From the IMG/VR virus record IMGVR_UViG_648028025_000008: a stretch of 33,448 bases of DNA; one strand, 5' to 3'. Below, piece by piece: positions 15,001 through 18,000 of this stretch. The position numbers are program-made. The DNA is from a virus. Its lineage: Duplodnaviria > Heunggongvirae > Uroviricota > Caudoviricetes. Each line of letters begins with the position of its first letter. Position 1 is the first letter of the stretch.

Positions 15001-18000
15001 CAAACAAAACCCGCCCACAAGCGGGTTTTGTTGTGCCACTTATCTCGGATAGACATGGTGAATGCGCTGGTGGAGGAGATAAGGGTGATTTTTGTATGCT
15101 TGCAACATTGATTTCGTAACGTTATTATCCTGCGCCCGGCCCTTTAGCTCAGTGGTGAGAGCGAGCGACTCATAATCGCCAGGTCGCTGGTTCAAATCCA
15201 GCAAGGGCCACCAACCGCCACTAGCCATCAGGAAAGAGCGTCAACCCTTTAAGTTGAGTGTGCGAGGTTCGAGTCCCCGGTGGTGGTCCATTATCGGTAT
15301 TCTGCGTTGTTAGCTCAGCAGGACAGAGCAATTGCCTTCTAAGCAATCGGTCACTGGTTCGACTCCAGTACAACGCGCTACACTTATTTTCCCGGCTCGC
15401 TTTTGCGGGCCTTTTTTGTATCTGCGCCACGCCCGGCGCATACCAACCACAGAGCCTTTCGGGGGGGGGGGGGAGCTTACGGAGTGGTCAGTGTGACTTT
15501 CTCTGTGGGCAGATCGCTCCCGGGCGTTGGCTCACCCACCCAAAGGAACGTCACGATGTTTGGTATTTTTGGTAAAAAAAGCCCGCAGAGCGGCAACGGA
15601 AATTAAAAAGTTTGAAAAACGCGATCTGGCACAGGTGGTGATTAACGCCGCCTACCTGGTGGCCTATGCAGATGGTGAATGTGAGGCTTCCTAGAAAGCG
15701 AAGATCGAACAGGTACTGCGTAATCAGCCTGCGCTGTACGCGTTTACGTCAGAAATTAATGCGATTAGCGCAACCATTATCGGTCAGCTGGATACGAACT
15801 TTAAAACTGGTCGTCGTGCGGCGTTACGTGAGATCGAGGATGTGAAACACGATACGCGTGAAGCGGAAGATGTGCTGGATGTGGCGGTGGCCATTGCGGA
15901 GGCAGACGGCGAAATTGAGCCGGAAGAGCGCAAGGTGCTGGAAGAGATTGCCGGTGTTCTGGGTCTTCGTCTGGAGAATTACCTGTGACGGTAAAACTGC
16001 GCCTGACTGTGGCTGCACTCCTGCTGTTTCTGGTGGTGATGGTGGATTTCACCAGCAGAATCATGTCGGTGCTGGCGGATGGGGTGCTGGTCTGCGGCAT
16101 TATGGTATTGCTGTGGCCGGTGATAAAAAGAAACAGCCTGCATAATGCTTGATTTTTTTGTTTGCTGTTTATTAAAAACACTTCTGCATGGTGAATCCCC
16201 CTGTGCGGTGGGGCAATCAGCAAGAAGGAATATGGGGTAATCGCGGATTCAGGTGCTGATACTGAATTCACCGGGAGGCACCCGGCACCATGCTTTGCCA
16301 CAAAAGTGTTATTTCTGTTTTTCTCAAACTATCATCGTTATCCCTTTATTTTCGGCTGCGCATGGCGCGGCCTTTTTTTTACGACCAGCCACTGGCAGAT
16401 GGTCATCCTGTGATTTGATTCCGCTTCCGGCTTTTTAACTCTGTTCCTCTACACGGGAGAAATTCGATGTCGATTAAACATTACGATGTTATCAGGGCGG
16501 CGTCGCCGTCAGACCTTGCGGAAAAGCTGACACACAAACTGAAAGAGGGCTGGCAGCCATACGGCGGACCGGTTGCCATTACGCCGTACACACTGATGCA
16601 GGCGGTGGCTATTGAAGGAGAGCCACAGGTCGGCCCTTCATCTGAGCCGGATTGGTACTACGTCATCGTACTGGCCGGGCAGTCCAATGCCATGGCTTAC
16701 GGTGAAGGGCTTCCGCTGCCGGATTCATACGATGCTCCGGATCCGCGCATTAAACAGCTGGCGCGCCGCAGTACAGTTACGCCGGGTGGGGCTGCCTGCA
16801 GATATAACGATATTATTCCGGCCGACCACTGCCTGCATGATGTGCAGGATATGAGTACGCTGAATCATCCGAAGGCAGACCTGAGCAAAGGGCAGTACGG
16901 CTGTGTCGGCCAGGGGTTACATATTGCCAAAAAACTGCTCCCGTATATCCCGAATAACGCGGGGATCCTGCTGGTACCATGCTGTCGTGGTGGTTCGGCA
17001 TTTACCCAGGGCGCGGAGGGGACATTCAGTGCGGACACGGGGGCCAGCCAGGATTCGGCGCGCTGGGGTGTGGGTAAACCGTTATATCAGGACCTGATTG
17101 CGCGCACCAAAGCTGCATTACAGAAGAACCCGAAAAATGTGTTGCTGGCGGTGTGCTGGATGCAGGGAGAGTTTGACATGAGCGCCGCCACCCACGCACA
17201 GCAACCTGCGCTGTTTACAGCCATGCTGACACAGTTTCGTGCTGACCTCTCCGTGTTTAACGCGCAGTGCCATGGTGGCAGTGCTGCAGATGTGCCGTGG
17301 ATTTGTGGTGACACGACGTATTACTGGAAAAATACCTACGGCACCCAGTACAACACCATTTACGGGGCGTACAAAAACAGGGAGAGTGAGGGCGTTTATT
17401 TTGTGCCCTTCATGACAGACGGTAACGGCGTCAATACCGCCACTAACGCGCCGGCAGAAGATCCGGATATTCCGGCATCAGGATATTACGGTGCGGCATC
17501 GAGAACGAATGGAAACCAGGTATCATCAAACCGCCCGACACATTTCAGTTCATGGGCGCGCAGGAGCATTATTCCGGATCGTATGGCAACCGCTATTCTG
17601 AACGCAGCCGGGCGCACCTCAGCCTTCATCAGTGGTAAGGCACCGGAAATCAAACCCTCGCCCGGCGGCAACACGCCATCGGGTCCGTCTGCAGATACGT
17701 CCGTTCGCACAATCTCCCTGCTGCCGGCAGCCGGAGAGGCTGCTGCGCAGGGCTGGAGCATTAAGGATGGCGGAATTCAGTTGTCAGATGGTGTATTTAA
17801 GATCACCAAGCAGAGCAATAAAACCTGGTCCCTGACGCATCCGGTGGATGACGCAATTACCCTGCTGACACAGGGCGGCAGACTGACCTGTAAGTTCCGC
17901 CTGTCAGGCGCACTGACCAACAATCAGTTCGGGCTGGGGATTTATCTGTATACGGATGCTCCCGTTCCTGATGGTGTGGCGATGACGGGTACCGGTAATC

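Follow-up and report, generated by a model that had tools for sequence, protein, structure and literature searches.

A disrupted TerB-family gene in a cargo slot at the stx position of a defective lambdoid prophage

Introduction

In the Shiga toxin (Stx) phage 933W, the late region is annotated in the order Q, pR', terminators, pT, ileZ, argN, argO, a terminator, stx2A, stx2B, an esterase gene, S and R, and it is textbook knowledge that Stx phages carry accessory genes, or 'morons', in this late region (PMC8065619). Phage P1 carries a pair of genes, tciA and tciB, that are non-essential to it. The subject of the present analysis is the position equivalent to that of the toxin genes in a stretch of 33,448 nucleotides from a virus of the class Caudoviricetes (IMG/VR record IMGVR_UViG_648028025_000008), the whole of which is referred to as the window. 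This position very probably holds a two-gene cassette, tciA–tciB, lodged in a cargo slot of the late operon that extends from the terminator after the tRNA genes to the gene for the small RNA (sRNA) STnc100, and tciA in this cassette would be dead, with a frameshift in a run of seven A residues (A7) as the first hit and a TAG nonsense codon as the second. A literature search found neither a functional study of tciA or of the DUF3927 family, to which TciB belongs, nor a paper on the allele carried by the window, nor experimental work on tellurite resistance, colicin resistance or a cell-division phenotype of the module.

The stx slot and its occupants

A preliminary description of the window, made from the sequence as such, placed a TerB-like gene at the position of the toxin genes of Stx phages, and comparison with 933W supports this placement. 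A BLAST alignment of the window with 933W runs at 87% identity over 15100–15428, which comprises pT, three tRNA genes and the terminator, and ends 43 nucleotides (nt) before stx2A. The homology restarts at window position 16168, which corresponds to a point 87 nt after the stop codon of stx2B, and continues through nanS-p and the holin and lysozyme genes. The homology to 933W breaks at stx2AB and resumes by STnc100, the cargo interval in the window is approximately 15429–16156, and the gene order Q, tRNA block, slot, nanS-p and lysis genes is common to the window and 933W.

The proposal that this slot is a general cargo site is likewise borne out, as stx2AB, stx1AB, tciAB, mom/com, an empty junction, and an insertion sequence (IS) or a deletion are found there in different relatives. 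The stx1AB genes lie immediately upstream of the homologous region in an Stx1 phage, Shigella phage 75/02. The tciAB pair occupies the slot in phages JLK-2012, Evi and PPyecE and in Escherichia coli O157:H7 SS17, and in strain SMN152SH1 a stump of tciA is left, with mom/com behind it. In the O145:H28 prophage PPompW_699, an ISEc20 element of the IS110 family is located at a G tract in the leader of tciA, and tciAB, nanS-p and the lysis genes have been lost. A search of IMG/VR anchored on the 3' end of the argO variant of the window yielded 20 contigs, of which 17 extend downstream for more than 200 nt. The tciAB pair follows in 12 of these 17 contigs. The slot is empty in three contigs (L021, L023 and L032), in which the terminator is followed directly by the STnc100 promoter and sRNA gene and then by nanS-p. 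Contig L024 and its short duplicate L026 show an empty-slot junction too, with an IS inserted within STnc100. This insertion is about 1.5 kb long and begins with CTGTCTCTTGATCAGATCT, a start that may correspond to an inverted repeat of the IS50/IS4 type. In yet another contig, L018, the G tract is joined directly to a terminase small-subunit gene.

The pair also adjoins phage tRNA genes in unrelated phages, namely in P1 (L012, 916–2576) and JLK-2012 (L002, 3764–4758). In P1, genes for tRNA-Asn and tRNA-Thr lie upstream of tciAB and a gene for tRNA-Ile(CAT) lies downstream, and in JLK-2012 genes for tRNA-Asn, tRNA-Thr and tRNA-Gly lie upstream. As far as these neighbourhoods indicate, the tRNA–tciAB association may be older than the arrangement seen in Stx phages.

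There is some possibility, though not a strong one, that the slot is not general, and that the tRNA–tciAB block is the ancestral resident module of the phage lineage, which stx replaced on a single occasion. The position of tciAB beside tRNA genes in P1 and JLK-2012 and its frequency among the argO-anchored contigs are consistent with this possibility, and so are the leaders of tciA and stx2A, whose initial 10 nt agree and which both have a CCAAAGGAAC box ahead of the ATG. However, empty slots, mom/com, IS elements, deletions, stx1 and stx2 are all found between the same two borders, and a resident module and a general cargo site are not mutually exclusive.

tciA and its two lesions

The first gene of the cassette, tciA (15556–15988, + strand, from the ancestral ATG; 15560–15988 from a TTG in the annotation by the Prokaryotic Genome Annotation Pipeline (PGAP)), is a pseudogene of the TerB family. 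When one A is removed from the A7 run and the TAG codon is read as Glu, the sequence from ATG 15556 to 15988 encodes a TerB-domain protein of 143 amino acids (aa). The repaired TciA matches the Pfam family TerB (PF05099) with 54.9 bits (cut-off, 24.4; E = 1.3e-14) and the TerB structure PDB 2JXU over residues 15–137 (E = 5.7e-7), in agreement with the TerB-family assignment of the preliminary description, whose coordinates are exact to the base.

The first lesion is the A run at 15574–15580 (+ strand), which is exactly seven bases long and falls on codons 7–9. In the intact alleles of phages JLK-2012 (A6) and Evi, the run is one base shorter, and the run of the window therefore represents a +1 insertion relative to them. 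The frame opened by ATG 15556 stops after 16 codons, and the TerB frame then runs to 15988 apart from the TAG. This second lesion, at 15692–15694 (+ strand) in the TerB reading frame, replaces the GAG codon of Glu46 that is present in the same intact alleles. Both lesions had been read from the window sequence, and both are seen again when the gene is aligned with the intact TerB-like prophage genes of JLK-2012 and Evi; the conserved N-terminus read from the ATG also speaks for the frameshift.

A search for homologues retrieved 171 proteins. Every full-length one, whether from Escherichia, Klebsiella, Salmonella, Serratia, Pantoea or Erwinia jumbo phages, begins with MFGxF(K/G)KK and has Glu46. 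An alignment of 16 sequences that extends to P1 TciA (41% identity) has 14 invariant residues, Glu46 among them. Glu46 closes the first of two acidic DGxxxxxE motifs (D39 G40 ... E46), which is broken by the TAG, and the second motif (D117 G118 ... E124) is intact. The two motifs would accordingly be properties of the ancestral TciA and not of anything that the window copy can encode. The window tciA has no uninterrupted open reading frame (ORF) from the conserved family start to the stop codon; judged by its sequence, it is a dead gene from which TciA cannot be made. RefSeq annotation by PGAP classes 15560–15988 in E. coli E2865 (NZ_AP018808.1, 1754961–1755389) among the pseudogenes, under the label 'tellurite resistance TerB family protein, internal stop', and so the window tciA is already annotated as a pseudogene in public records and represents a known kind of feature.

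The A7 run, the start codon and selection

As PGAP places the start at TTG 15560, it reports no frameshift. The allele of O157:H7 SS17 (WP_001303509.1), which has A7 together with GAG46, is annotated as an intact protein of 142 aa with a TTG start. The N-terminus obtained from this start, MVFLVKK, is an out-of-frame reading of the bases that encode the conserved MFGIFGKK, and the Shine–Dalgarno sequence AAGGA (15543–15547) lies 8 nt from the ATG and 12 nt from the TTG. The conservation of MFGxF(K/G)KK out to Pantoea, Klebsiella and Erwinia jumbo phages suggests that ATG 15556 is the ancestral start and that A7 is a real +1 frameshift, which appears to have been papered over by annotation. Where PGAP calls a gene intact and its product opens with MVFLVKK, the allele is probably a frameshifted one that the TTG start has rescued.

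The intact alleles have a ratio of non-synonymous to synonymous polymorphism (pN/pS) of 0.02–0.12, and this strong purifying selection suggests that the gene is real and normally constrained. The changes derived in the A7 clade comprise five non-synonymous ones (A27V, Y37C, E46*, S61Y and H142Y) against four shared synonymous ones, and A27V, Y37C, S61Y and H142Y hit sites that are otherwise conserved. These changes are suggestive of relaxed constraint, with counts that are small. In a test for decay by the ratio of non-synonymous to synonymous substitution rates (dN/dS), two A7 alleles differed at just three synonymous and three non-synonymous positions.

An unlikely alternative, which nevertheless carries some weight, is that the TAG is the only lesion, so that the A7 form is legitimate, starts at TTG 15560 (MVFLVKKARR...) and has suffered one inactivating hit in the window. 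In favour of this alternative, PGAP calls the SS17 allele with A7 and GAG intact and flags just an 'internal stop' in the window copy, and the A7 form is the commonest one in complete genomes, the exact A7 66-mer being the best match in 553 of the 614 E. coli records that have the region. However, this prevalence is inflated through heavy sampling of clonal enterohaemorrhagic E. coli (EHEC). The start read from the ATG is kept across genera and in jumbo phages, the spacing of AAGGA favours the ATG, which lies 4 nt upstream of the TTG and would compete with it, and the A7 clade has changed at the conserved residues Y37, A27, S61 and H142. The chance that the TTG form of the A7 allele retains some function is accordingly put low.

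Less probable again is a role for the A7 run as a contingency tract or a slippage-prone attenuator, beyond that of a dead-end lesion. The A7 form is the majority form of its allele family and is otherwise intact in O157:H7, and a one-base slip at A7, either ribosomal (+1) or transcriptional, would restore the ancestral protein exactly. If the run did act in this way, the variable G tract located 83 nt upstream could be a second such tract, and TciA production in numerous EHEC prophages would be stochastic and very low but not abolished. On this view, it would be the TAG that truly inactivates the gene, and the spread of the TAG would be a hint of selection against even trace amounts of TciA.

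Order and spread of the lesions

Among 5,426 complete E. coli genomes, 575 (approximately 11%) contain a 36-mer (window 15675–15710) chosen to match only when the TAG is present; it has 958 occurrences in all, with up to 5 copies per genome. An exact 61-mer count (185 records) underestimates the TAG allele because the copy of strain EDL933 has the TAG beside Y37C. A flanking 61-mer that matches any allelic form is found at 1,944 places and a 179-mer at 2,696, and hence about one-third to one-half of the tciA copies in complete E. coli genomes carry the TAG. Both lesions are present together in 190 records (at least 99% identity over 179 nt). The TAG allele is distributed over O157:H7, O145:H28, O121:H19, O111, O26, O103 and O55:H7, and it is also found on other prophage backbones, such as that of the EDL933 copy (L006, 1500–1561), which has no tRNA genes and has lost about the first 18 codons.

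Pairwise distances among 19 alleles show TAG and GAG interspersed over haplotypes separated by 1–6 nt, every one of which has the seven-base run. The simplest history would be that A7 arose first, that the TAG arose second on an already frameshifted allele, and that it then spread by recombination among co-resident lambdoid prophages. In such a history the A7 lesion is older than the TAG and marks the whole allele clade, including the O157:H7 copies that are annotated as intact. Gene conversion, hitch-hiking and selection for loss are candidate causes of the spread of the TAG.

One allele (L013, 3001–3429; GCA_023642445.1, contig ABGLLM010000087.1) has TGG (Trp) in place of the TAG and keeps A7. 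It is identical to the window over the aligned 330 bases or so except for this codon, the length of the G tract and one upstream base, and it sits behind a gene for an AraC-type regulator, in a place without tRNA genes. The TGG of this single sequence may have arisen through a neutral A-to-G change or may be an error.

Many other broken forms of TciA exist, pointing to repeated decay. The database contains clusters of N-terminally truncated proteins (284 and 223 members) and of C-terminally truncated ones (847 members), a TciA–TciB fusion, and forms with in-frame insertions of 2 aa after codon 47. Intact clusters are common too (108, 354, 848 and 680 members). The idea that the cargo of the window is decaying is supported, with refinements: tciA has two lesions and the prophage is a remnant, tciB is intact, and the decay of tciA is neither private to the window nor recent.

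It is very improbable that tciA is still expressed by recoding, through +1 slippage of the ribosome or the transcript on A7 together with read-through of the TAG. Such a slip of one base would give the ancestral MFGIFGKKARR exactly, the TAG allele is very common and present in multiple copies, and one contig has TGG on an otherwise identical allele. On the other hand, no recoding signal was seen in the gene and a suppressor tRNA is absent, the three tRNA-like genes reading CAT, TTT (degenerate) and TCT. The TAG replaces the invariant Glu of a metal motif, so that read-through would insert another residue, and the interleaving of TAG and GAG within an already frameshifted clade fits neutral spread and not selection for a recoded product.

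That A7 and the TAG are sequencing or assembly errors in an intact gene has a negligible probability, because, although homopolymers are error-prone and the nearby G tract differs in length between assemblies, the 1081 bases from 15380 to 16460, with A7, the TAG and a G tract of 13 residues (G13), recur with 100.0% identity in at least 38 independently sequenced complete genomes from different laboratories (O26, O111, O103 and others), the TAG context is found in 575 genomes, and the TAG is a substitution and not a homopolymer length error.

Several points weigh against the reading of a tciA–tciB cassette in which tciA was hit first by A7 and then by the TAG. The SS17 allele is called intact by PGAP, and A7 alone may only weaken expression. 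The suggestive signal of relaxed selection hangs on very few substitutions. Transcription from pR' and a polar effect of the lesions on tciB are inferences, and a GGAG that belongs to tciB itself, 8 nt before its start codon, may still allow TciB to be produced. Finally, the names tciA and tciB were assigned through homology alone, from the annotation of P1, and the PADLOC defence models gave no convincing match, TciA having one marginal match (PDC-S48, E = 0.0094, 35 residues) and TciB none. With just that marginal 35-residue match to TciA, tciAB was rejected as a candidate defence system.

A plausible mechanism

In the proposed two-hit cassette, intact TciA would be a cytoplasmic TerB-domain protein and TciB a 55-aa DUF3927 peptide with two hydrophobic helices. 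The intact cassette would be transcribed like stx2, by RNA polymerase modified by Q that proceeds from the late promoter through tR', the tRNA genes and the terminator at 15394–15420. TciA, with two acidic motifs of a metal-binding type and a basic N-terminus, may act at the membrane together with TciB, in analogy to TerB and its membrane partner in the ter operon, and the two proteins would form a membrane-associated metal-binding module that serves lytic growth or protection of the lysogen. Virulent jumbo phages of Erwinia and Salmonella have TciA homologues of 65–75% identity, and P1, P7 and D6 have homologues of 41–51% identity, suggesting that the pair serves the lytic growth of the phage as well as, or instead of, the lysogen.

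In the window, the extra A at codons 7–9 would put the ancestral ATG out of frame, so that a 16-aa peptide is made, and a G-to-T change would have turned the invariant Glu46 into TAG. Translation of tciB may still occur, but its coupling to the translation of tciA is probably lost. The conserved flanks of the slot may act as homology arms, allowing cassettes to be exchanged between prophages.

The left side of the slot

The antiterminator gene Q (14253–14942, + strand) is taken from the RefSeq annotation of the identical sequence in E2865 and lies upstream of the late promoter region, from which the slot would be driven. A promoter scan detects a promoter-like site at 14926–14954. A terminator scan identifies a GC-rich hairpin followed by a T run at 15003–15032 (+ strand), a putative tR' that was assigned by its position, in analogy with the terminators that the annotation of 933W places after Q. 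A further promoter-like site in the promoter scan (15100–15128, + strand) aligns with 2083–2111 of the 933W locus (L008), annotated as pT, the putative tRNA promoter.

Three tRNA-like genes follow on the + strand. The first, for a tRNA-Ile of the ileZ type with the anticodon CAT (15138–15213), and the third, for a tRNA-Arg of the argO type with the anticodon TCT (15304–15378), are found by ARAGORN, by Rfam (72.5 and 68.1 bits, respectively) and by PGAP. The second is a degenerate copy of argN, a pseudo-tRNA gene (15215–15290) that is reported by ARAGORN only, as 'Lys ttt'. It has no Rfam tRNA match even at E <= 10, being below the gathering threshold, and is unannotated by PGAP; its best Rfam overlap is with tRNA-Sec (15.7 bits, E = 2). 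The argN copies of 933W, SS17 and Evi score 54.8, 44.4 and 37 bits. Compared with the intact argN of SS17, the window copy has a deletion of 1 nt in the D arm, an altered anticodon loop and a deletion of 6 nt in the spacer, and its anticodon loop has the sequence CCUUUAA (TTT), in which position 33 is C. The ileZ–argN–argO cluster of the preliminary description is thus correct for the ileZ and argO types, but the argN copy is degenerate. The decayed form appears as 'tRNA-Lys' in records of O145:H28 PPompW phages. As a decayed argN that fails Rfam and has the loop CCUUUAA, this middle gene was rejected as a candidate suppressor of the TAG.

The left border of the slot is an intrinsic terminator after the tRNA block (15394–15420, + strand; terminator scan), which is homologous to the 933W terminator annotated as lying 'upstream of the stx genes'. 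Between this terminator and tciA (15428–15556), the promoter scan found no sigma-70-like promoter, which is weak negative evidence. The leader of tciA contains the G13 homopolymer (15461–15473, + strand). The length of this tract ranges from 5 to 14 across related, otherwise near-identical loci, a variation of which part may be homopolymer sequencing error in draft assemblies. The tract is a recurrent rearrangement breakpoint, at which the ISEc20 insertion and deletion junctions land, and the IMG/VR contigs L025 and L030 have other, different junctions there. The leaders of tciA (window 15417–15558) and stx2A (L008, 2409–2465) both open with TATCTGCGCC after the terminator and both close with CC(A/C)AAAGGAAC, followed by 8–10 nt and the ATG. 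Between these shared ends, the leader of the window is about 85 bases longer, the G tract included. The shared ends could be a vestige of an ORF-for-ORF replacement or a coincidence.

The right side of the slot

The second gene of the cassette, tciB (15985–16152, + strand), is an intact ORF for a 55-aa DUF3927 protein with two hydrophobic helices (Pfam PF13064, E = 1.7e-16; PGAP, WP_000216649.1). Its GTG start overlaps the stop codon of tciA (GTGA, 15985–15988). The right border of the slot is a gene for an STnc100-family sRNA (16157–16329, + strand; Rfam RF02076, 100.8 bits), after which the terminator scan detects a terminator-like hairpin (16354–16372). STnc100 is the immediate downstream neighbour of stx2B in 933W (L008, 3778–3983, 207.7 bits) and of tciB in JLK-2012, Evi, SS17 and the EDL933 copy. 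In 933W and in the empty-slot contigs (L021), it is preceded by CACAATTCAG..GTTGACAG, a –35-like box. The sRNA promoter of the window may differ because this –35-like region is replaced by the 3' end of tciB. Rfam detects no counterpart in the window of the sRNA AsxR, which comes after STnc100 in 933W. The next gene on the + strand is nanS-p (16467–18320), which is intact and encodes a sialate O-acetylesterase of 617 aa with DUF1737, SASA and DUF6645 domains. TerB is among the genes commonly located within 10 kb of PasA/PasC sRNA genes, and the sRNA PasD is related to STnc100; the PasA/PasC genes lie between the esterase and holin genes in related prophages (2026 preprint), an interval that corresponds to 18321–18469 in the window.

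The prophage around the slot

The window is a defective lambdoid prophage at ompW, which extends from the integrase gene at position 1 to an OmpW fragment at 33321–33446, and which presumably resembles Sp9 of strain Sakai and CP-933P. Its genes include paa, hokD/sok, Q, the tRNA genes, nanS-p and the lysis genes. Directly after the lysis genes are tail-fibre fragments and genes for effectors of the type III secretion system: nleA (frameshifted), nleH1-2, nleF, nleG and espM1. The RefSeq annotation of the identical sequence lists several further pseudogenes and no head or tail genes, and the prophage is a remnant that has lost its virion genes. E. coli E2865 matches the window throughout except for one IS insertion elsewhere and one mismatch. 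This insertion is an IS3-family element of 1.27 kb (20397–21663) that is missing from the near-identical E2865 sequence; it has orfA with an HTH_Tnp_1 domain and orfB with an rve integrase core, and it splits an antirepressor gene. The DicF sRNA gene (4537–4588, – strand) adjoins dicB, and the sok antitoxin RNA gene (11705–11854, + strand) adjoins hokD; both are ordinary for such prophages.

Implications

A large proportion of EHEC prophages appear to carry an inactivated copy of a phage accessory gene, tciA, and the direct significance of this is small. More broadly, the toxin position of Stx phages may be regarded as a cassette site that is clearly bordered by the tRNA terminator on the left and by the STnc100 sRNA gene on the right, and these two borders provide a simple handle for cataloguing the cargo of lambdoid prophages at the stx position. 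Natural intact and broken alleles are at hand for testing the role of TciA and TciB. What is added here comprises the exact borders of the slot, the empty-slot relatives and the degeneracy of argN, as well as the order and spread of the lesions and the probable misannotation of A7 alleles as intact.

Comparison with known systems

The gene pair of the window has the layout of the tciA–tciB module of P1, in which a TerB-domain protein of about 141–143 aa is encoded directly before a DUF3927 protein of about 55 aa and tRNA genes adjoin. The DUF3927 domain is found in P1 TciB with E = 7.1e-31, compared with 1.7e-16 for TciB of the window. By its domain content and the order of the two genes on one strand, the window pair is accordingly classed as a P1-type tciA–tciB module. 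It differs from that of P1 in that the proteins are 41% identical, a third small gene, tciC, is present in P1, where the genes lie in the ban operon region and not in a lambdoid late operon; moreover, the tciA copy of the window is a pseudogene.

The loci of JLK-2012 (annotated as tciA/tciB), Evi and PPyecE_EH1910 are much closer, with Q, tRNA genes, tciAB, STnc100, nanS-p and lysis genes and with proteins that are 95–97% identical. They differ from the window in that they are intact, with A6 or an interrupted A run and with GAG46, and in that the tRNA genes of JLK-2012 are those for Asn, Thr and Gly. The SS17 allele (WP_001303509.1) shares with the window the prophage region and A7 and differs from it at 6 of 432 positions plus codon 46, where it has GAG; in addition, its argN is intact and it has G10 where the window has G13.

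The stx2AB locus of 933W agrees with the window in both flanks, the left one consisting of the tRNA block and the terminator and the right one of STnc100 and nanS-p, and the right flank is also found at the stx1AB locus of 75/02. The occupant differs, however, being a toxin operon of about 1.37 kb in these Stx phages and a tciAB cassette of about 0.74 kb in the window, and 933W has AsxR. The TerB protein of the ter operon (terZABCDE; PDB 2JXU, Klebsiella) belongs to the same TerB fold family and shares the two DGxxxxxE acidic motifs with TciA. This relationship is distant (E = 5.7e-7), there are no other ter genes near tciA, and the partner is a DUF3927 peptide and not TerC.

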